A DNA stretch of 64,000 nucleotides. Source: Polaromonas sp. GTDB lineage: Bacteria; Pseudomonadota; Gammaproteobacteria; Burkholderiales; Burkholderiaceae_C. Made by a program: the position numbers and the translations under genes. The stretch lies in NCBI RefSeq assembly GCF_010365105.1, contig NZ_JAAFGZ010000008.1, positions 15,656 through 79,655 of the forward strand, given 5' to 3'. Below are positions 29,925 to 44,479 of the stretch, one piece after another (the stretch's first letter is position 1; the number at the start of each line of letters is the position of its first letter). A model generated the notes under the pieces. That model did not search any database. It was not told where the DNA came from and was given only the letters and a program-made list of their open reading frames with translations.

Positions 29925-30010
29925 AAAAAGCATCCGGAACAACGGCGGTGAGCCGTATTTGGGTACTATTTGCCGTAAAAATTGCGGTGAATAAACGCGA
30001 CAATCGCCGC

Positions 30011-31141
30011 ATGCGTCCCCATCGACCCCCCCGCAATCCGCGCTATATCTGGCAACTGCCCGACTGGCCAAACCTCACCTGCGACGTTGCCGCACTGGCC
30101 GCACCCCTGGCCCAGGTGCACCGGGCGCAAGGTCAGCTCATGGGGCGCATGGCTGAGCTGGGCATGGCCCAGCGTGAACAAGCGACCTTGCAGGTGCTTA
30201 CCCAGGAAGTCATCAAGACCAGCGAGATAGAAGGCGAACGCCTCAGCCTGGACGCCGTGCGCTCGTCCATCGCGCGCAGGCTGGGGCTGGACATTGGCGC
30301 ACTGGCCCCCAGCGACCGGAAGGTGGACGGCGTGGTGGATGTGGTGCTGGACGCCACCCGCCACTTTGACCAGTCCCTGACGGCAGAGCGCCTGTTTGGC
30401 TGGCACGCCGCTTTGTTCCCCACCGGCTACAGCGGCCGGGTGCGCATCACCGTGGCGGCATGGCGCACGGATGCCAGCGGTCCCATGGAAGTGGTGTCCG
30501 GCCCTGTGGGGCGGGAGAAAGTGCATTTCACCGCACCGCCTGCCAGCACGTTGCTTGCGCAAACCGATGCGTTCCTGAAGTGGTTCGAGGCCGCCCCGGT
30601 GGGCGACGCCCTGATCAAAGCCGGGCTGGCGCACCTGTGGCTGGTGACCCTGCATCCGTTTGACGACGGCAATGGCCGCATCAGCCGCGCCGTGGGCGAC
30701 ATGGCGCTGGCGCGCGCCGAAGGCACCCGTCAGCGCTTCTATAGCTTCAGCGCCCAGATACAGCGCGAGCGCAAGGACTATTACGACCAGCTGGAGGCCA
30801 CGCAAAAAGGCCCGCTGGACGTGACGCCCTGGCTCGGGTGGTTTCTGGGCTGCCTGCTGCGCGCCGTTCAAGGCGCAGACGCCACGCTGGCCGGCGTGCT
30901 GGACAAGGCCCGGTTCTGGCAACGCTGGGCCGGCACGCCCATGAATGCGCGGCAAACCCAGGTGCTGAACCGCGTGCTGGACGGCTTTGAAGGCAAGCTC
31001 AGCAACGCCAGGTGGGCCGCGCTGGGCAAGTGCTCTGCGGACACGGCGCTACGCGACATCAATGATCTGCTGGCGCGCGGCGTGCTGCGCAAGCTGGAGG
31101 GCGGTGGACGCAGCACGGGATATGCGTTATGTGCCAAATAG
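30011..31141 (+). CDS. Fic family protein (DUF4172 N-terminal, Fic core, C-terminal wHTH)
   Basis: Fic motif HPFDDGNGRISR. Putative inhibitory helix TSEIEG. ATG at 30011. Confidence 0.9.
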   Translation: MRPHRPPRNPRYIWQLPDWPNLTCDVAALAAPLAQVHRAQGQLMGRMAELGMAQREQATLQVLTQEVIKTSEIEGERLSLDAVRSSIARRLGLDIGALAPSDRKVDGVVDVVLDATRHFDQSLTAERLFGWHAALFPTGYSGRVRITVAAWRTDASGPMEVVSGPVGREKVHFTAPPASTLLAQTDAFLKWFEAAPVGDALIKAGLAHLWLVTLHPFDDGNGRISRAVGDMALARAEGTRQRFYSFSAQIQRERKDYYDQLEATQKGPLDVTPWLGWFLGCLLRAVQGADATLAGVLDKARFWQRWAGTPMNARQTQVLNRVLDGFEGKLSNARWAALGKCSADTALRDINDLLARGVLRKLEGGGRSTGYALCAK

Positions 31142-31190
31142 GCACTTGGCGCTTGTGGAATGTGCGCGAGCAGCTATCAAATTAAATAAC
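31141..31190 (+). repeat. REP-like intergenic repeat (copy 6)
   Basis: Sequence GGCACTTGGCGCTTGTGGAATGTGCGCGAGCAGCTATCAAATTAAATAAC. Confidence 0.55.
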
Positions 31191-31198
31191 GATCAGCC

Positions 31199-31392
31199 AT
31201 GAAAAAAGTGTCTCGCATGGCGTCTGCCGTACCCGATGCTGAATCGGCGTTGTATTCCAGCATCCATGCGCTGGTCCTGTCCGCCCGCAACACCGTGGCA
31301 CGTGGCGTTAAGCGGGTAGCCGGTGTGCACCAATTTCGAGATGGGCTGGCACATTGTTGAGTACGAGCAGCAAGGCGAGGCACGGCTGCTTA
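31199..31392 (+). pseudogene. remnant of a DUF1016/YhcG-type (PDDEXK nuclease family) gene N-terminus
   Basis: One frame reads ..ALYSSIHALVLSARNTVARGV. A shifted frame reads TNFEMGWHIVEYEQQGEARL. Together they resemble the conserved YhcG N-terminus (..AR..A...VN....YW.IG..I.E.EQ.G..RA.YG). The gene is truncated after about 65 codons. Confidence 0.45.
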
Positions 31393-31420
31393 CGATGTGG
31401 CTATCAACAACTCCCCATCC

Positions 31421-31503
31421 GTCATTCCCGCGAAGGCGGGAATCCAGCAACACGGGCTGAAACGCTCAAACGCGTCTGGATACCCGCCTTCGCGGGTATG
31501 ACG
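31421..31503. repeat. pair of inverted REP hairpins
   Basis: GTCATTCCCGCGAAGGCGGGAATCCAG ... CTGGATACCCGCCTTCGCGGGTATGAC. Each unit is an 8-bp hairpin. The two units differ by a compensatory T/A swap. Confidence 0.7.
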
Positions 31504-31595
31504 CAGGGAAGTTATGACTGACCGCATCCCGCCAAAACTGGACCATGCGCGAATTCAAACGCCAGTTTGACAGCGGCCTGAACGGACGCCTGGCA

Positions 31596-32848
31596 CTATG
31601 GCTTGAGTGCAGGCTGGTGCCACCCCGGCACGTTCACCGCGTAGCGCGTTGCCTTGCCAACGCCCTCCACGCGCAGCAAGCCCTTGACCAGCAGGTCCGT
31701 CAAATCCCGCGTCGCAGTGGCTTTGGACGTGCCGGTGATCCTGGCGTACTTCTCGTTGGTCATGCCGCCCAGAAAACCGCCGCCCAGCGCCACTTGCCCT
31801 GCGTCCAGCAGGCGTTCCAGCACCTTGTGCTGCCGCGCATTCAAGCCGCATTGACCCGCCTTCATGCGGAAAACCGCCTTTTCTGTCGCCTGCCGCACGA
31901 CCGCCTGGCAGGCCATGCAGCCCTGTGTAAATGCCGCACAAACCACTGCACCCAGGGTGTCAGGTCAATGGCGGCGGCATCAAGCTTGACGCCGTGCAAG
32001 CGCTGCGCCTGGTTGAGTTCGTCGTAATACGCGGTGCGGGTTTTCAGCATCTGGCGGGCCATGCCAAACACGCGAACCAGGGCGGCATGGGTAGCCGGGT
32101 CGTGCGCCTGCATGTCTTGCGCCAGCGCCATGTCAACCAAAGCGCGCCCCAGCCGGCCATTGCCATCTTCAAACGGGTGAATCGACTCAAACCACACATG
32201 CACCAGCGCCGCCCGCGCGATGCCATGAAGCCCAGGTGCATGAGCGGTAGGCCTGGTGGCCTCGAACCACGCCAGAAACTGCGCCATTTCCGCTGCCACC
32301 TGACGCGAGGGTGGCGCTTCGTAATGCACCCGCTCCCGCCCGGGCGCGCCGCTGACGATCTGCATGGCGTCGGCATGGTCGCGCAAACGCCCCACGGCAA
32401 TGCGCGCAATGCCCGAGGTGCCACCCGGAAACAAGGCCGACTGCCAACGGCACAGGCGGTCCAGGGTCAGCGCATCGTGGGAGTTGGCCAGCGCATCCTG
32501 CATCACCTGCACCAGCCCGTCTGCAGTGCGGTCATGGCCGGGCGCATCGGCCAGGCCCAGCCGGTGCGCCACCGATGAGCGGACCGATTCCAGGTCGAGT
32601 TGCTCTCCCTCAATGGCTGCTGTGGCCAGCGCCTCTTGCACCCACAACTCGCGCTGCACCTCTTGCGCCTGCTCCAGGCCAATTGCCTCCAGCAAACCCA
32701 GCAACTTGCCTTGCGCCAGCCGGGCCTGGTCCAGCGCTGGCGCCAGCGCCAAGGCGTCGAAGGTCAGCCTCGGCCAGGCACCGTGCTGCCAGATGTAGCG
32801 TGGTGCGGGTGCTGTCGGTGGTGGTGTTGGATTGGGCATGAGCCGCAT
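31596..32848 (-). pseudogene. Fic family protein (paralogue of 30011-31141), frameshifted
   Basis: The N-terminal 328 aa (Fic motif HPFEDGNGRLGR, TAAIEG) run in the frame ending at 31862. The C-terminal wHTH part (..ARQHKVLERLL..TNEKYARITGTSKATATRDL) runs in the frame of ORF 31596-31946. The switch lies at about 31937-31946. Confidence 0.8.
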
Positions 32849-32870
32849 TGTAAGTAATGCAACTCAGAAA

Positions 32871-32900
32871 TTGAGGTGTATTTTAAGAAATACGCCTCAA
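32871..32900. other. 13-bp inverted repeat (hairpin or operator candidate)
   Basis: TTGAGGTGTATTT-taag-AAATACGCCTCAA, with one G.U/C.A position. It lies 23 nt upstream of the fic pseudogene ATG and at the distal end of the AT-rich tail of the RT cassette. Confidence 0.5.
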
Positions 32901-33317
32901 AGCGCTGCGGGAAGATTCGAGTTTTGTCTTTGGCTCAAGCACTTGTATACAAATTAAAAAAACAAAATTAATAACGAAAAATCGTTAATTTGAATACTCC
33001 ATGAACCTGCTGTTCCCGCACCCTTTGAGCGCACAGGTGTCAAGTAAAGTTGTTTTTCATTGCAAGACCTGAGTCTAAAACTTTTCTTTCAGGCAGATGC
33101 AGTGCAGAAGCTACTTGAGAAAAATATTTCTCAGCTTTAAAAGGTTTGTAACTGACTGGCTAAATAAGTTTGGCGAAAAAAATTATGCCAAATAGGGCCT
33201 TACCGCACAGCAGGCTATTAATTGAAGATTAAAAAGACATTACTTTTTGTCTACCTGCACTCGCGTCCGTATCCGTGGGTGTATTAAATAAAATTTAATT
33301 AAACTTACCCAAGTTTT

Positions 33318-35057
33318 TTAACTCATATATTCTGATCCAATTAAAGATAATGCCTCAAGAGGCGCGCCTTCTAAGATTGAATGTCTAGTTCGGGCGAGAG
33401 TGCATATTTCCTCTCCAGTCGTATTTATTCTAAGTGATTCAAATTCGTCTTCAAACGATAAATCTGACGCAGTGCGCGACTTTGGCGACTCATCATTTGT
33501 TGAGAGGAGCAACTGACCAGTTGGAGTTTTTGGAATGTCGGGAAGAGCAGATTGCGCGACAGTTCCGTGAAGTCTTAAAAGCACTAGTGAGTTTAATTTA
33601 GCATCATCTAATTGCGGTTCTAAGTTGAGCACCGCCTGAGTTTTGCCGTGTTCTTTCCATAGCTCCGCGAAAGCTGCAGGTGCTTGCCCAAAGAACGGGA
33701 GCACGGGATTAACAATGCCACCTTTTAATGCGTTGGCAAGTGATGCTTGCTCCACGAGTTCTGGAAAAGCTTGAAAAGCATCTTGTGGTCCTCCCCATTC
33801 TGAAAAGGTACGTAGATAAAACAAAACGTTTACGAGTCTTCTCGCTCTCTGAATCTTCCAGCGACGAAGGTGCGGTGAAGTCAACGATTCGCTACATAAT
33901 TCTAATAGTGACTGCTCGTAAAGATTTTTAAGAGCCATCGCTTTTTCTACGAAATAATTTTCATCTAATCGGAGTACGTGTAAGGTCTTAAGCACTTCAG
34001 TTATAGATTTTTGACGACGTAAAAAATATCGAAATCTAGAATAATTTGATAAGGTTTTAAGTCTTTCAATTGGGATGCTAAATCCAGCTCCTTTCAATCT
34101 ATCGCTTAACGATTGCGTACGACCTTCATAGAGAGCTAAATAAATCGTTAATTCGCGAGTAAAGGAGCGAAAGTCATCTTCAAATGGGATATCGGCACTA
34201 ATATTGCTAGAATTCCATTCTTCTTTTGTTAAATACTCTGTCTTAGATGAATTTAATTCGAAATTACTGCGCTCGACGCTGTTTTCTATGTCGCTAAGAA
34301 CAACGGCTCGATCAGCGCTCTTGCATACTATAACAATGTCATCCACATATCTAAAATAATTCGATCCATATTTTTTGTATAAATCGGAGTCAACTTGCGA
34401 CAATGCGACGTGACCCAATAGGTGGCCAGGTGCCGGGCCAATTGGGATGCCTCCATTGCTAGCATTTAAAAGTTGAACGAAGAAGTTTGTAAACCCATCG
34501 CTAGATCCATTTGGTATATTTTGAAATAGGCCTTTCAAGCTTTTTGTAATGCTTTCAATTTTAACCGATGGATAAAATTTTTTAATGTCAGCTACTACCG
34601 CGATTTTGTCATTTCCTTGAAGCGCTCGGAATATTTCATTGTTGCGTCGCTTATAGCCTTCCGCAAAAAAGCTATAGCTAGAGCCTGAACTGGTCGATTT
34701 TGGCCAAAGGTAGCTGTAGACCTGTGTGGAAACTGCAAATGAGGGGGTTGAGGCTAGGATTGCCAGTATGTGAGCGCCCGCAAGAGCCGTAGATGGATTT
34801 GGGGCAACACAGTCCCGATATTCGTGGACCAACTTTCCATTGTGGTTTGATGAACCCTTGTATAACTGAAAAGGTTTGTAGCTCCATTTGTCGCATGAGG
34901 CTATCCTTCGCTCAAGCATTCTATGAATGTAAGCTGGATCTTGTATGGAAAGATTTTTTCCTAAAACTCTAAGGCCCATGTAGCTCGGGAAATAACTCTG
35001 TTTGGTCGAATTTAGAGCACGGATTAGAAGTAACTGATCAGGAGTAATTGCACTCAT
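33318..35057 (-). CDS. reverse transcriptase, UG/Abi-like (defence-type), with a long helical C-terminal region
   Basis: 579 aa. RT motifs VVADIKKFYPSV, GIPIGPAPGHLLGHVAL, YFRYVDDIVIV (YVDD) and FELNSSKTEY. No maturase X, endonuclease or retron VTG features were seen. The ATG overlaps the upstream stop codon (ATGA). AT-rich. Confidence 0.85.
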   Translation of the reverse strand: MSAITPDQLLLIRALNSTKQSYFPSYMGLRVLGKNLSIQDPAYIHRMLERRIASCDKWSYKPFQLYKGSSNHNGKLVHEYRDCVAPNPSTALAGAHILAILASTPSFAVSTQVYSYLWPKSTSSGSSYSFFAEGYKRRNNEIFRALQGNDKIAVVADIKKFYPSVKIESITKSLKGLFQNIPNGSSDGFTNFFVQLLNASNGGIPIGPAPGHLLGHVALSQVDSDLYKKYGSNYFRYVDDIVIVCKSADRAVVLSDIENSVERSNFELNSSKTEYLTKEEWNSSNISADIPFEDDFRSFTRELTIYLALYEGRTQSLSDRLKGAGFSIPIERLKTLSNYSRFRYFLRRQKSITEVLKTLHVLRLDENYFVEKAMALKNLYEQSLLELCSESLTSPHLRRWKIQRARRLVNVLFYLRTFSEWGGPQDAFQAFPELVEQASLANALKGGIVNPVLPFFGQAPAAFAELWKEHGKTQAVLNLEPQLDDAKLNSLVLLRLHGTVAQSALPDIPKTPTGQLLLSTNDESPKSRTASDLSFEDEFESLRINTTGEEICTLARTRHSILEGAPLEALSLIGSEYMS

Positions 35058-35983
35058 AAATTTTTAAATTGCATTACTACAACTCTGCTATTTGTGACGT
35101 GGTCATTAATGGGATCTATCCATTGAAAATTCCGCGTTGGAGCTTTAGATATATCTTCCTCTGAGTCGCTTGAAGAACTTGAACCGCTAAATATCTGTTT
35201 GAGTGTAAAACTTATTGATTCAACAAACGTACCTAACCATGATTTTTCCAGTTTAGGTTCGACCCATAGCCAAGAACTAGATTTTTGTTTATGGCTTAGC
35301 CTGGCTGCAATCAATTTCAAGGAGTCCATCATCCGCTCAACTCCTTCTTTTTTTATACCTGATACAGCTGAAATAGTGCATAGAAATCTATTTGATTTTT
35401 TTGCCTTCGCTTCTTCAAAAAAATCGTCAAGAACCTCATTAATTTGACCGCTGATGTTCATGTCGCACACAGAAAATGTCAATTTTGTATATATTGCATT
35501 TGTAGCTAACCATGGTTTTAATTTTTCGAGTATTTCGGCATAATAGTTAAGCGCGTCAGGAGACATATCAATTCCTCTGATGTTTACATTTAACGGCAAG
35601 GTCGGTATAATTTTTTGATCGCGTAGTTCGCATATCGTTGAGAGAATAGATAAAGTCCCAGCACCATGGCCTGCAGCTAAGTCAAGGATAAATATTTCGC
35701 CTTGTGCTAGTTGATCTAGCACCATCATCCGACTTTTAGGCTGTTCATTATTTACATCAATGCATACGTATTGCATTCTTGCCGCAGAGTTCAGGAATCT
35801 ATTAGTCACATGGTCTTGTGCTTGAGCTGAAGATGCACCGCCGATATCACCTGAGGTTTTGGGTTGGTAGTTTTTTAGCCAACCTTTTTCATTCAAGAAG
35901 TCTGTGTATATATCGCATAACTTCTTGGCCAAACAAAGCTGCCCTTTGTCCCATAATGTTTGAGGTGTATGTTTAAGAGACAT
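35054..35983 (-). CDS. SAM-dependent methyltransferase-fold protein (function unknown)
   Basis: 309 aa. Motif I FILDLAAGHGAGTL, post-I IRGIDMSPDAL, and a possible motif IV-like VCDMN. No DPPY/NPPY or PCQ DNA-methyltransferase motif was found. AT-rich. Starts 7 nt after the helicase stop codon. Confidence 0.6.
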   Translation of the reverse strand: MSLKHTPQTLWDKGQLCLAKKLCDIYTDFLNEKGWLKNYQPKTSGDIGGASSAQAQDHVTNRFLNSAARMQYVCIDVNNEQPKSRMMVLDQLAQGEIFILDLAAGHGAGTLSILSTICELRDQKIIPTLPLNVNIRGIDMSPDALNYYAEILEKLKPWLATNAIYTKLTFSVCDMNISGQINEVLDDFFEEAKAKKSNRFLCTISAVSGIKKEGVERMMDSLKLIAARLSHKQKSSSWLWVEPKLEKSWLGTFVESISFTLKQIFSGSSSSSDSEEDISKAPTRNFQWIDPINDHVTNSRVVVMQFKNL

Positions 35984-35990
35984 ATTTAGT

Positions 35991-37802
35991 TTATTTGAAG
36001 AGCTTGTTGGATGCGCTAGCGGTAAAGATCAAACTTCCGGTCGCCCGCGTCGCCCCCACATAAAACAACCGCGCCTCCTGCCGCTCATCCTCGCCCGCAG
36101 CAGGCATCCGCCCCACGCCCACCAGCGCCACCACCGGAAACTCCAGCCCCTTGCTGGCGTGCATCGTCAGCAACTTGATCGTGTCTTCGTTGGGGTGAAA
36201 GCTGCCTGAGCCTTTGCGCACTTGGTGCGGTAGCCTGGTGCGGTTCAGCGCGTGTGCGCATGCGTCCATTTCGTCGTAGCGCCGGCAGATCACGGTCATG
36301 TCGCCCCAGGCGTGGTTTTCATGGTGGGCGGCGTTCAAGAGGTCGGCAATCTTGAAGGCCTCGCCCTGCAGGCTGGGCAGGCGGATGATGAGCGGCGCTT
36401 GCCCGTCGCGGCCGCAGCTGATGGGCTTGAGCAGCGGAATGCCGTCGTCGTCCTGGTCGTCTGCGGTCAGCAGGTCGGCGGCAATCAGGCTGGCGGTTTG
36501 AAGAATCTGGCGGGTGTTGCGGTAGTTGATTTTCAAAATGGTGGTGCGGCCCTGCGCCTGCACGCCCACGCTTTTGAAGCTGAAATTTTTGGCGCGCGCC
36601 CGCTCGTAAATGTTTTGCGCGTCGTCATACAGCAACAGCAAACTGTTGGTGGCCGGGTCCACCATTTGCGTGACGAGCCGGAGCCATTCGGGCGCAAAGT
36701 CGTGGCCTTCGTCGATCAGCACGGCCTGGTACTGGCCTGACGGGATTTGCGCGCGGTCCACGCCGTGAATGACGCGCAGAACCATCTCGTCCATCTTCTG
36801 GCCCACGGACAGGTGGTGCGCGGGCAAATCCTGCCCAAACGCCACCAGCTGGTCGCGGCACCACTTGTGAAAATGCCGCGCCTGCACCCGGTCTGACAGG
36901 CCTTTGCTGTCCATCACGCTGGCGAGCTTGACGGCCAGCGGCTCGTTGTAGCAAAGAATCAGGATGGGTTTGGAGGCGGGCGTGTTGGCCTTGGCCAGGT
37001 ATTCGGCGCGGTAGCCAAGGATCATCGTCTTGCCCGAACCGGCCACGCCGTGAATCACCCGGTGGCCGTCGCCCAGTGATCTTGCCAGCTGCTCTTGCTG
37101 CAGGTCCATCACGCGCAGCATGTCGGGGAAGTCGGCGTCCGGGTCGTTGTCGTCAAACAGCGCGCCCTGCGTTTGCACCCGCACCTGCGGAAACATGTTC
37201 CAGCGCACGCGGTCAAGCTGCGGCAGCGTCATCACGCCCCGGCCGAACGCGTGCGGAATCATGTTCCAGAGCCGCTGCTGAAAGGCTTCAACGTCGGCGG
37301 TTTCCAGCATTTCGTCCTGGCAGATCACGTATTGCGGCTCAATCGCCTCGCCCAGCCCGGCGGCGTCGAACTGCCTGCGCGTGATGCGGGTGAAGACCAC
37401 GCCGTGGCCCCATGGAAACGCCAGCTTGCCCTGGTGCGGGCCGCTTGTCTGCACCAGTTGCGGGTCGCGTTCCAGCGCGTTGACGACCTGAATGGCGCAA
37501 AACCGCGCCTGTGCCAGCGGGCTCATCACCACCTTGATGCGGCCATCGACCAGCAGGTCCCACGCCTGCCGGGTGGCCTGCTGGACCGTCTCCAGGCGCC
37601 AGTCCTTGGTTTCCAGAATCAGCAGGCCGCGCCGGGGGTGCAGCACCACAAAGTCGGGGTGCGACTGCTTGGGGCCAACGGGCACGTCGTACCAGAGCAA
37701 ATAGTCGTCGTCGAGCTTTTGCTCCAGCCGCTCGGCCAGGCGGCGCTCGCCAGAGGTCATTCGGGGCATGCAGGTGCCCATAGCAGGAATAAGAGTCGCC
37801 AT
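35991..37802 (-). CDS. NERD (PD-(D/E)xK nuclease-like) domain fused to SF1 UvrD/Rep-like helicase
   Basis: About 603 aa from ATG 37802 (the ORF-track start at 37805 is TTG). NERD-like HPDFVVL...LLILETKDW. Walker A GVAGSGKT, motif II VLIDEGHDF, and also YRNTRQI, TMHASKGLEFPVV and LFYVGATRATGSL. G+C is host-like. Confidence 0.85.
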   Translation of the reverse strand: MATLIPAMGTCMPRMTSGERRLAERLEQKLDDDYLLWYDVPVGPKQSHPDFVVLHPRRGLLILETKDWRLETVQQATRQAWDLLVDGRIKVVMSPLAQARFCAIQVVNALERDPQLVQTSGPHQGKLAFPWGHGVVFTRITRRQFDAAGLGEAIEPQYVICQDEMLETADVEAFQQRLWNMIPHAFGRGVMTLPQLDRVRWNMFPQVRVQTQGALFDDNDPDADFPDMLRVMDLQQEQLARSLGDGHRVIHGVAGSGKTMILGYRAEYLAKANTPASKPILILCYNEPLAVKLASVMDSKGLSDRVQARHFHKWCRDQLVAFGQDLPAHHLSVGQKMDEMVLRVIHGVDRAQIPSGQYQAVLIDEGHDFAPEWLRLVTQMVDPATNSLLLLYDDAQNIYERARAKNFSFKSVGVQAQGRTTILKINYRNTRQILQTASLIAADLLTADDQDDDGIPLLKPISCGRDGQAPLIIRLPSLQGEAFKIADLLNAAHHENHAWGDMTVICRRYDEMDACAHALNRTRLPHQVRKGSGSFHPNEDTIKLLTMHASKGLEFPVVALVGVGRMPAAGEDERQEARLFYVGATRATGSLIFTASASNKLFK

Positions 37803-37977
37803 CAAAAAGTCACATTTATTATCAATTTGTAACGTACATCATGCGCTCAAACTGGGGCCGTCTGACTGACACGCTCCGGCCGCTTTACGTAGCTTCCCTA
37901 GGTGCATCTTTGAAAAAAGGTCGTTAGCATCCGGAATCACGCCTGGTTCGATGGGCGGTTTATGGAGTACCCACTTT

Positions 37978-38475
37978 ATGCAACTGCATGCCCTTACGGC
38001 CAAAATTTCCAGCCTGTTTCTTGTTTTGGGTAGCCTTGTGCTTGCGCCAGCGATGGCCGCACCGCGTTACACGCCGTCGGCAGACGGACAGGAAATCTCC
38101 GACAGCAAGACCGGCCTGGTATGGCGGCGCTGCGCTGAAGGCATGGACTGGAAGGGCACTACCTGCGTCAACACGGCCGTGTTTTCCAACTTTTTCGGTG
38201 CCGAGGCGCGCGCCAAAACGGCTGCCACTTCCGGCAAGCCTTGGCGCCTGCCGACCCTGAAGGAACTCTCGGGCATCGTGGCGGTGCGCGAGGCCGGGGA
38301 AGGCCAGGCGGCGATTGATCCGGTGGCTTTTCCGGCAACGCCGGCTGCGCGTTTCTGGTCGTCCAGCAGCGTCGGAAAGGGCTACTTCATGTATGTGGCG
38401 TTCACCGAAGGCAGTGCCGGGGAAGGGGAGCGCAACTCCCCGGGCGCGGTGCGGCTGGTGCGCGAAGGCAAGTAG
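37978..38475 (+). CDS. DUF1566 (Lcl C-terminal-like) domain secreted protein
   Basis: ATG at 37978 gives a signal peptide. TGLVWRRCAEG...WRLPTLKEL...FWSSS pattern. Confidence 0.65.
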   Translation: MQLHALTAKISSLFLVLGSLVLAPAMAAPRYTPSADGQEISDSKTGLVWRRCAEGMDWKGTTCVNTAVFSNFFGAEARAKTAATSGKPWRLPTLKELSGIVAVREAGEGQAAIDPVAFPATPAARFWSSSSVGKGYFMYVAFTEGSAGEGERNSPGAVRLVREGK

Positions 38476-38502
38476 CCGCCGGGCCTTGCCGGCAGTCCGC
38501 TT

Positions 38503-44312: not shown

Positions 44313-44479
44313 GGCAGTTGTGGGCGTTGAGGGTACACCGGCTGGCGTTTGCGCGTTTCAGCCCGTGTCGCTGGATTTTCGCCTTTGCGGGACTGACGGA
44401 CAGGCAGCGATGGATTGCCAAATCCCAAGGGCAGCCCAGCACGGCAAAAAAACACCCTGGTGCATTGGATTTGGCATCA

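Follow-up and report, generated by a model that had tools for sequence, protein, structure and literature searches.

A candidate two-gene UG36 phage-defence module behind a resident NERD-UvrD helicase gene in Polaromonas

Introduction

Do three genes that follow one another with only a few nucleotides (nt) between them form one working system, or does a shared junction merely make them look like one? This question is raised by a locus of Polaromonas sp. (contig NZ_JAAFGZ010000008.1), lying in a stretch of 64,000 nt that was analysed as a whole and is called the window here, in which a NERD-UvrD helicase gene is followed by a gene for a methyltransferase (MTase)-like protein and by a gene for a UG/Abi-type reverse transcriptase (RT). 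The original prediction, made from the sequence alone, had taken these three genes as one candidate defence system of a kind not described before. In this study, we conclude that the locus is not a new three-gene system and that it is a member of the catalogued UG36 MTase-RT group; the whole locus is a catalogued two-gene candidate phage-defence module of foreign, low-GC origin, located behind a host helicase gene. To this architecture, a two-gene UG36 system beside a resident helicase, we give a probability of roughly 0.7.

The layout that had given rise to the original prediction is present as described, with three co-directional open reading frames (ORFs) on the minus strand (Table 1), a gap of 7 nt (35984-35990) between the helicase stop codon and the ATG of the MTase-like gene, and an overlap of 4 nt (ATGA) between the stop codon of the latter and the ATG of the RT. 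The motifs quoted for the three proteins were likewise found in the translations, namely DIKKFYPSV, GIPIGP and RYVDD in the RT, GSGKT, DEGH and the PD...ETK of the NERD domain in the helicase, and motif I LDLAAGHGAG in the MTase-like protein.

The reverse transcriptase is a UG36 enzyme

A check against the PADLOC profiles placed the RT in RT_UG36 (PDLC03775) over its full length (E 2.3e-159, 530 bits, profile positions 2-556 of 557), while the next-best model, Drt8, reached 79 bits. The Pfam match is RVT_1 (E 8e-12), D157 and the Y237-V-D-D240 motif are invariant across 32 homologues, and the family of UG36-like RTs comprises 138 protein clusters. The structure model of the RT (predicted local distance difference test score, pLDDT, 87) has its best Foldseek matches in the PDB among DRT6, DRT4, AbiA, UG15, Abi-P2 and AbiK, in alignments of 500-670 columns that include the helical C-terminal half, and these are followed by DRT9, DRT2, retron and group II intron RTs.

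Both the profile scores and the Rfam searches uphold the claim that the RT is of UG/Abi type and belongs to none of three better known classes. A retron was rejected on retron RT models of at most 37 bits, the lack of upstream intergenic space and the absence of any msr/msd match in Rfam; a group II intron RT on a TIGR04416 score of 33.6 bits against a cutoff of 300 and no match to intron RNA in Rfam; and a CRISPR-associated RT on its profile scores and for want of a match to any RNA family. The Rfam scan of 31000-38500 gave no match at gathering score, and the two chance-level matches (E 0.7-0.8) fell to unrelated families and outside intergenic DNA. No NCBIfam equivalog was found for the helicase, the MTase-like protein or the RT.

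The UG36 group was defined by Mestre et al. 2022 (NAR 50:6084, PMC9226505), who associated it with separate methylase-domain genes, noted its resemblance to UG25 and UG35, in which the methylase is fused to the RT, and predicted a role in defence by inspection of individual loci, with fewer than 50 homologues and no experiment. With a PADLOC model for UG36 and the methylase-gene association already in print (Mestre et al. 2022, PMC9226505), the RT and MTase pairing is not the undescribed one that it had been taken for. The UG36 MTase-RT module has a patchy, low-GC and horizontally transferred distribution; a search for carriage of UG36-like RTs gave no phage match and a single distant plasmid match (26% identity).

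The methyltransferase-like partner and the two-gene unit

The S-adenosylmethionine (SAM)-MTase fold assigned to the middle protein is borne out by its AlphaFold model (pLDDT 86, 32 homologues), a Rossmann class I SAM-MTase fold, and by Foldseek matches to solved SAM-MTases, the nearest being METTL17, GNMT, HNMT, DOT1 and TehB, at fold level only (E 1e-5 to 1e-3). In sequence, the protein aligns with the methylase part at the N-terminus of the PADLOC model RT_UG35 (E 3e-11, profile positions 81-219); its sole Pfam match, Methyltransf_31 (E 0.038), lies below the cutoff of that family, and its profile found nothing below E = 1 among PDB sequences. An alignment of 32 sequences has D101, G105 and G107 of motif I and the acidic D139 as invariant residues, together with the conserved blocks NRFLNSAARMQ, CD(L/M), RFLC.ISA.SG and SSWLWVEP.

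With 343 representatives among 1.84 billion proteins, almost all of them about 300 amino acids long, the MTase-like family is small and closed, and its 123 clusters are similar in number to the 138 of the RT. One of the 343 representatives, P0409 (780 amino acids), is a natural fusion of an MTase-like domain (4-261) with a UG36 RT (316-769; RT_UG36 E 7e-125), suggesting that the MTase-like protein and the RT act together. We also collected 62 UG36-like loci from genomes and metagenomes and restricted the count of upstream genes to the 45 with at least 950 nt of upstream DNA. The MTase-like gene lies directly upstream of the RT and co-directional with it in 38 of these 45, and the commonest gap between the two genes is -4 nt (22 of 40 loci); the seven exceptions include recurrent loci, with RTs about 29-30% identical to that of the window, in which a different short ORF stands upstream. 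Judged from these gene neighbourhoods, the MTase-like protein is the probable obligate partner of the UG36 RT. The expectation that both other genes would recur beside the RT therefore holds for one of them: the MTase-like gene does so in the 38 loci, the NERD helicase does not, and in none of the 62 loci, all more distant from the window, was a homologue of the helicase found beside the module, against its proposed role as a fixed partner. In the same way, the RT does fall in a known class, in which the methylase partner is known and the helicase is not a fixed one.

The helicase as a host gene

The third protein was correctly recognised as a NERD-UvrD helicase of superfamily 1 (SF1), with the Pfam domains NERD, UvrD-helicase, AAA_19 and UvrD_C and a strong match to the PADLOC model C3a187 'NERD+UvrD' (E 4.1e-167, 555 bits, protein residues 2-599). 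On the RT-associated models it scores 53.5 bits (RTasHel) and 63.6 bits (RTasNERD-Hel). The name C3a187 goes back to Shah et al. 2018, who described a NERD+UvrD family as a candidate type III CRISPR accessory; no cas domains were found among the called genes of nine helicase loci, the whole window not being scanned for cas genes.

The helicase family comprises at least 8000 protein clusters, a lower bound since all 8000 scored candidates passed E 1e-20, against the 138 of the RT. Its identities track taxonomy (81-95% in Polaromonas, 81% in Rhodoferax, about 79% in Hydrogenophaga, 76-95% overall), and no homologue was found in loci L001-L003, L006 and L011-L090 of our collection. The closest relatives (86-95% identity) are without the UG36 cassette, two having other cargo and the third lying at a contig end beside a transposase-like ORF, while Polaromonas naphthalenivorans CJ2, with the same cargo as the window, has a helicase only 80% identical; helicase identity thus does not track cargo. 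From these comparisons, the NERD-UvrD helicase is in all likelihood a resident, conserved gene of Comamonadaceae and the left anchor of a hotspot. A functional link to the cassette is unlikely, and the protein most likely acts alone as a single-gene nuclease-helicase.

The junction and its hotspot

The composition of the DNA draws the boundary at another place than the gene borders. GC content is 62-69% in the helicase, matching the window (60-70% average), and 33-49% across 32849-36040, the mean falling by about 24 points from 63% in the helicase to about 39% in the cassette. The break lies at 36040, within the final ~50 nt of the helicase ORF and outside the 7-nt gap. While the flank 5' of the helicase (Lcl_C, TSP_3, Flavin_Reduct and MFS genes) is syntenic with Polaromonas sp. 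CG_9.11 (locus L007) at 85-89% nucleotide identity, homology with that genome ends at 36040, as it does with both copies in P. hydrogenivorans (L010, CP157675) and with a Rhodoferax metagenome-assembled genome (L093); with a Polaromonas metagenome-assembled genome (L009) it ends at 36010. The breakpoints with these four genomes lie within 30 nt, just after the sequence coding for motif VI (RLFYVGATRA).

What follows the helicase differs from genome to genome: type I restriction-modification (R-M), Abi_C and SLFN_AlbA_2 in P. hydrogenivorans, with an intact DUF1016 gene beyond this cargo, HATPase_c_3, Methyltransf_35, Dcm and Vsr in the Rhodoferax genome, a gene for 381 amino acids of no known family and an insertion sequence in the Polaromonas genome L009, and a TIR-domain protein in Hydrogenophaga (L098, breakpoint not mapped). 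The variable defence hotspot that had been supposed from the neighbouring genes is thus seen in the differing defence cargo at the same junction in related genomes, and the helicase, preceding interchangeable cargo, marks its edge. Helicase C-termini are identical through RLFYVGATRA(T) and diverge beyond it according to cargo; 115 of the 120 closest helicase clusters continue with T(Q/H)(R/K)L..., and the TGSLI-type low-GC tail occurs only in the window and CJ2. Cassette-borne tails are homologous to native tails, yet low in GC. Since the C-termini diverge with cargo, and the GC drop coincides with the end of homology, we propose that the cargo provides the last 16-20 helicase codons, so that the tight 7-nt spacing would be a by-product of the recombination junction and not the sign of a dedicated operon.

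Alternatively, the cassette might itself be a targeted mobile unit that recombines into the motif-VI sequence of the helicase, the carried fragment serving as homology arm and the helicase as landing site. This reading would explain why the four breakpoints fall so close together (36010-36040), right behind the stretch where the DNA of the gene is most conserved, and why cassette-borne tails are homologous to native ones; it also agrees with the helicase remnants of varied lengths that travel with the cassette and with one relative (L005, see below) in which divergence is far higher in the cassette than in the helicase next to it. However, unrelated cargos (type I R-M, Dcm/Vsr, a gene of no known family) share the junction, making it a property of the hotspot and not of the UG36 cassette; no integrase, transfer RNA gene or convincing flanking att-like repeats were found at the locus, and the window as a whole has no transfer RNA gene; the common breakpoint may merely mark the start of the variable C-terminal tail; and the more distant UG36 modules lie in other contexts. 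We therefore consider a targeted mobile unit improbable, and a version with an RT-dependent or site-specific mechanism less likely still.

Some further observations concern the hotspot. In P. hydrogenivorans two NERD-UvrD helicase copies (612 and 606 amino acids) stand in tandem before the type I R-M, Abi_C and SLFN_AlbA_2 island (L010:8103-11821). In CG_9.11 the helicase, 95% identical to that of the window, is frameshifted into pieces of 508 and 72 amino acids (L007:10001-11945), and next to it, before the contig ends, is an ORF beginning MEHYKVTLSEQERAELQ..., which we take to resemble an IS630-type transposase. The window also has a near-identical 20-nt direct repeat, TCTTAAA(C)ATACACCTCAA (minus strand), at 35981-35960, at the start of the MTase-like ORF, and at 32890-32871, roughly 20 nt away from the right end of the low-GC segment. 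CJ2 and the metagenomic contig L004 lack the second copy, and the repeat, a borderline case, may have arisen by chance or be a trace left by an earlier cassette.

Close relatives of the cassette

Six close members of the subclade (RT identity at least 60%) were compared, and in two of them, the window and CJ2, the helicase is intact. The other four have different stubs, with the MTase-like gene and the RT intact: the last ~28 codons, frameshifted, in L004 (RT 87%; L004:232-337), where homology spans window positions 36077-33301; residues 321-334 joined to a tail-like stretch in L094 (RT 70%; L094:2-139); residues 2-69 joined to RFYVG in L005 (RT 60%; L005:309-605); and a decayed fragment of residues 266-304 in L095/L096 (RT 60%; L095:965-1081). 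In our reading, the MTase-like gene and the RT would be maintained without need of the helicase.

Comparison of the window with L005 gave 84% amino-acid identity and 0.095 nonsynonymous substitutions per site (dN) for the helicase fragment, against 60-61% identity, dN 0.29-0.34 and saturated synonymous sites for the cassette, a gap that points to different histories in that locus. With CJ2, where continuous cassette homology runs to about 33286-33290, the identities are 93% (RT), 92% (MTase-like protein) and 80% (helicase). A recent transfer of the cassette between the window and CJ2 had seemed possible from 91% nucleotide identity in the cassette against 82% in the helicase, but was dropped, as the synonymous divergences (dS) are similar (helicase 0.51, MTase-like gene 0.48, RT 0.30). 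That the cassette proteins are more alike than the helicases is mostly due to stronger purifying selection (dN/dS 0.09-0.11, against 0.23 in the helicase). The argument that helicase and cassette are decoupled thus depends on the divergence in L005 and on the turnover of cargo. We propose that the cassette circulates among Comamonadaceae by recombination, putatively with the helicase gene as homology arm.

A genuine three-component system would have the helicase as a working partner in this subclade, a split version of the UG35 architecture in which the helicase could unwind or degrade phage DNA marked by the RT product, or process that product. A number of observations speak in its favour and weigh against a two-gene module. 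The genes are co-directional and 7 nt apart, and between the helicase and the MTase-like gene neither a promoter-like site nor a terminator was found, which makes co-transcription of all three probable in the window. The intact trio recurs, with identical spacing and GC break, in a second Polaromonas genome (CJ2, CP000529.1, about 4,239,900-4,244,600), and the similar dS values imply that this pair could have inherited it together. All six close members lie behind this helicase or its remnant, linked to its 3' end, the cassette always carrying a helicase-tail segment, and the linkage outlasts the saturation of synonymous sites in the cassette. Associations of UG35 with UvrD and of UG34 with a NERD-helicase have been published (PMC9226505), and other helicases adjoin distant UG36-like modules: an SF1 RecD/UvrD-like helicase of 1195 amino acids lies about 58 nt upstream of one (L016:2911-9222), and the start of a RecQ-like superfamily 2 helicase of 721 amino acids overlaps the RT stop by 4 nt in two more (L060:515-4422 and L061:471-5343; RT about 22% identical), an arrangement that has the look of a true operon of MTase, RT and helicase in another branch. 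The functional side of our reading meets its own difficulties, since neither the catalytic motif IV (D/N/S)PP(Y/F/W) nor the m5C motifs PC and ENV occur in the 32-sequence MTase-like alignment, the RT model reaches template modelling scores of just 0.33-0.41 and 13-14% sequence identity with solved RTs, and a full-text literature search found no later paper that names UG36, UG35 or UG25 as RT groups and no defence test of UG36.

On the other hand, four of the six close relatives have a destroyed helicase beside an intact MTase-like gene and RT, a GC break of about 24 points marks the junction, unrelated cargos come after the same helicase and its phylogeny does not follow them, it scores 555 bits on C3a187 against 54-64 bits on RTasHel and RTasNERD-Hel, and it is absent from the 62 other UG36-like loci. 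Helicases of varied families appear as occasional neighbours, and we accordingly keep a three-component system as an unlikely reading, though less improbable than a targeted mobile unit.

Other genomic contexts of UG36-like modules

Most UG36-like modules are without a tightly coupled third gene, and clustering of the neighbours of the 62 modules gave no universal third partner; type I R-M, DUF499 and helicase genes were found only now and then. In L003 and L011, type I R-M genes directly adjoin the MTase-like gene, and in L033 and L051 they lie close by; a DUF499 ATPase of 986 amino acids overlaps the MTase-like start by 8 nt in L021 (L021:6066-11752). In Pseudomonas fluorescens CFBP13716, a second, unrelated RT of 394 amino acids (RVT_1; L002:12062-13246) lies convergent to the UG36 RT in the same low-GC island.

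These surroundings bear on whether the pair is directed against phages at all. The MTase-RT pair might instead be a selfish or addiction-type module, or modify RNA or DNA in a housekeeping or regulatory role, given that no UG36 experiment was found in the searchable literature, that the published prediction (PMC9226505) came from the inspection of individual loci with fewer than 50 homologues, and that the MTase-like protein is without a recognisable nucleic-acid MTase catalytic motif. However, defence genes surround the module in many independent loci (type I R-M in L003 and L011, DUF499 in L021, the cargos of the hotspot), toxin-antitoxin and Fic genes lie near the cassette in the window and in CJ2, the RT is structurally nearest to proven Abi and DRT enzymes, and the distribution is patchy, horizontally transferred and low in GC. 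A role outside defence consequently appears the least probable of the alternatives considered here, marginally below the targeted mobile unit.

A dedicated flanking non-coding RNA was also considered and rejected, Rfam being negative, the spacer downstream of the RT not conserved, and many loci lacking intergenic room; in several of them the preceding gene (HsdS, DUF499 or helicase) runs right up to the MTase-like one. The spacer of the window (32849-33317) has no ORF of at least 42 amino acids, no Rfam match at E <= 1 and no counterpart in the loci fetched, and CJ2 lacks it in spite of an RT 93% identical. As a minus-strand RNA it folds better than 100 of 100 shuffles (z = -2.8).

Neighbouring features of the window

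The features of the locus are collected in Table 1. The neighbours named in the original prediction, two Fic genes and a DUF1016 remnant, were verified by Pfam and by tblastn and blastn. CJ2 also has a Fic gene downstream of the cassette (71% nucleotide homology, L091 16514-17770 against 31862-32848). Between the Fic gene and the DUF1016 remnant, a minus-strand ORF of 116 amino acids (31596-31946) with a weak HTH_Crp_2 match overlaps the 3' end of the Fic ORF by 85 nt; it could represent the C-terminus of what was a longer Fic protein before a frameshift divided it. A short repeat is common to the window and P. hydrogenivorans, at 31394-31530 (137 nt, 91%), within the DUF1016 remnant, at 44346-44425 (80 nt, 80%), around 44.4 kb, and at L010:7843-7980, a little upstream of the first helicase. 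The repeat may be an element like a repetitive extragenic palindrome (REP) or a miniature inverted-repeat transposable element (MITE).

Table 1. Positions of the genes and segments of the UG36 locus and its surroundings in the window (aa, amino acids)
Feature	Position	Strand	Remarks
NERD-UvrD helicase	35991-37805	minus	604 aa from TTG 37805; ATG 37802 is the next codon
MTase-like protein	35054-35983	minus	309 aa; class I SAM-methyltransferase fold
UG36 RT	33318-35057	minus	579 aa; YVDD intact
Helicase ORF tail, last 16 codons (GSLIFTASASNKLFK, then stop)	35991-36040	minus	low-GC cargo DNA
Conserved cassette (helicase tail, MTase-like gene, RT and ~30 nt)	33290-36040	minus	continuous homology with CJ2
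Low-GC non-coding spacer downstream of RT	32849-33317		469 nt
Fic-family gene (DUF4172 and Fic), high-GC	31862-32848	minus	Pfam
DUF1016 (YhcG) gene remnant	31163-31598		tblastn and blastn against the DUF1016 gene of L010
Second Fic-family gene (DUF4172 and Fic)	29948-31141	plus	Pfam
Lcl_C-domain gene, first gene of the conserved flank 5' of the helicase	37951-38475	plus	Pfam

Discussion

Our explanation of the locus starts from a low-GC segment of about 2.75 kb (36040-33290), putatively acquired horizontally, which would encode the MTase-like protein and the UG36 RT, the two genes probably being translationally coupled via the ATGA overlap and their products most likely forming one complex, equivalent to the methylase-RT fusions of UG25 and UG35. 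The 3' end of the helicase would be the left border of a hotspot for swapped cargos, each bringing the last ~16-20 codons of the helicase, which for its part may supply read-through transcription to the cassette. In the DRT6, DRT4, AbiA, Abi-P2 and AbiK group, DNA synthesis starts from a tyrosine primer and needs no nucleic-acid template. Since the RT is structurally nearest to this group and many loci have no room for a flanking non-coding RNA, protein-primed synthesis might be expected here as well, the invariant Y26 and Y80 of the RT being candidate priming residues; the RT might make single-stranded DNA (ssDNA) when triggered by a phage, leading to arrest of the infected cell or to a block of phage replication. 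In the case of DRT4, untemplated random ssDNA is made from a priming tyrosine, and its toxic build-up is triggered by a phage DNA-binding protein (PMC12783706). The MTase-fold subunit could bind SAM and modify the nucleic-acid product or the primer, or gate the activity of the RT. By analogy with these systems, such a mechanism is a tentative proposal, which we hold far less firmly than the architecture itself.

Just two features of the locus were unexpected: its subclade has stayed linked to helicase 3' ends, and the helicase has been truncated repeatedly. It is conceivable, if rather unlikely, that this UG36 subclade is tied to NERD-UvrD helicases, either with the helicase as a conditional third component or with its 3' fragment as a built-in homology arm. 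In the latter case, the cassette would home into resident helicase genes and often destroy them; for a defence module this would be a novel means of selecting where to insert, possibly displacing a competing defence gene. More generally, the locus is an example of how tight gene packing can mislead, the last codons of a host helicase being rewritten, on our reading, by whichever cargo lands. The hotspot, with a very common helicase family as its anchor, could be a place to search for more defence cargo in Comamonadaceae. UG36 is the sole UG/Abi group found here to be partnered with a stand-alone MTase-fold protein, with no published experiment found, and the window and its near-twin in the cultured strain CJ2 offer a concrete construct of 2.7 kb to probe the role of an MTase fold in RT-based immunity.

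Among the known systems, the locus stands closest to UG36 itself as described by Mestre et al. 2022 (PMC9226505), being a member of that group by full-length match to the profile hidden Markov model, upstream methylase gene and defence-island setting, with no essential difference. New with respect to that paper (PMC9226505) are the helicase-anchored insertion site and the natural MTase-UG36 fusion, and the C-terminal half of the RT, in which no such domain had been seen there (PMC9226505), resembles in our model a helical domain of DRT4/AbiK type. UG35 and UG25 share with the locus the MTase-like protein, homologous to the methylase region of UG35, and a UvrD-family helicase is adjacent as well; UG35 is a methylase-RT fusion associated with a UvrD-like helicase in cluster 22 (Mestre et al. 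2022, PMC9226505). In contrast to UG35, the methylase of the window is a separate ORF with a start and a stop codon to itself, UG35 is missing from the best 25 models of the RT, and the helicase is resident instead of cassette-borne, with weak scores on RT-associated helicase models (54-64 bits). DRT4, DRT6, AbiK, Abi-P2 and AbiA are the best structural matches of the RT and are like it in an intact YxDD palm motif and no adjacent non-coding RNA, but they are single-gene systems or go with HEPN, and none has an obligate MTase-fold partner.

As to the helicase, it resembles C3a187 (Shah et al. 2018) in a full-length model match, with a PD-(D/E)xK-type nuclease followed by an SF1 helicase, and it resembles Nhi and Hna in the architecture of a single-gene nuclease-helicase, although neither is among its top PADLOC matches. 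The setting recalls the core defence hotspots of Pseudomonas aeruginosa (PMC10250203), in which a conserved flanking gene is likewise followed by interchangeable defence cargo in related genomes. Compared with those hotspots (PMC10250203), the boundary here falls inside the last ~50 nt of the flanking gene, the C-terminal tail of which appears to be supplied by the cargo, and the flanking gene is itself a candidate defence gene.

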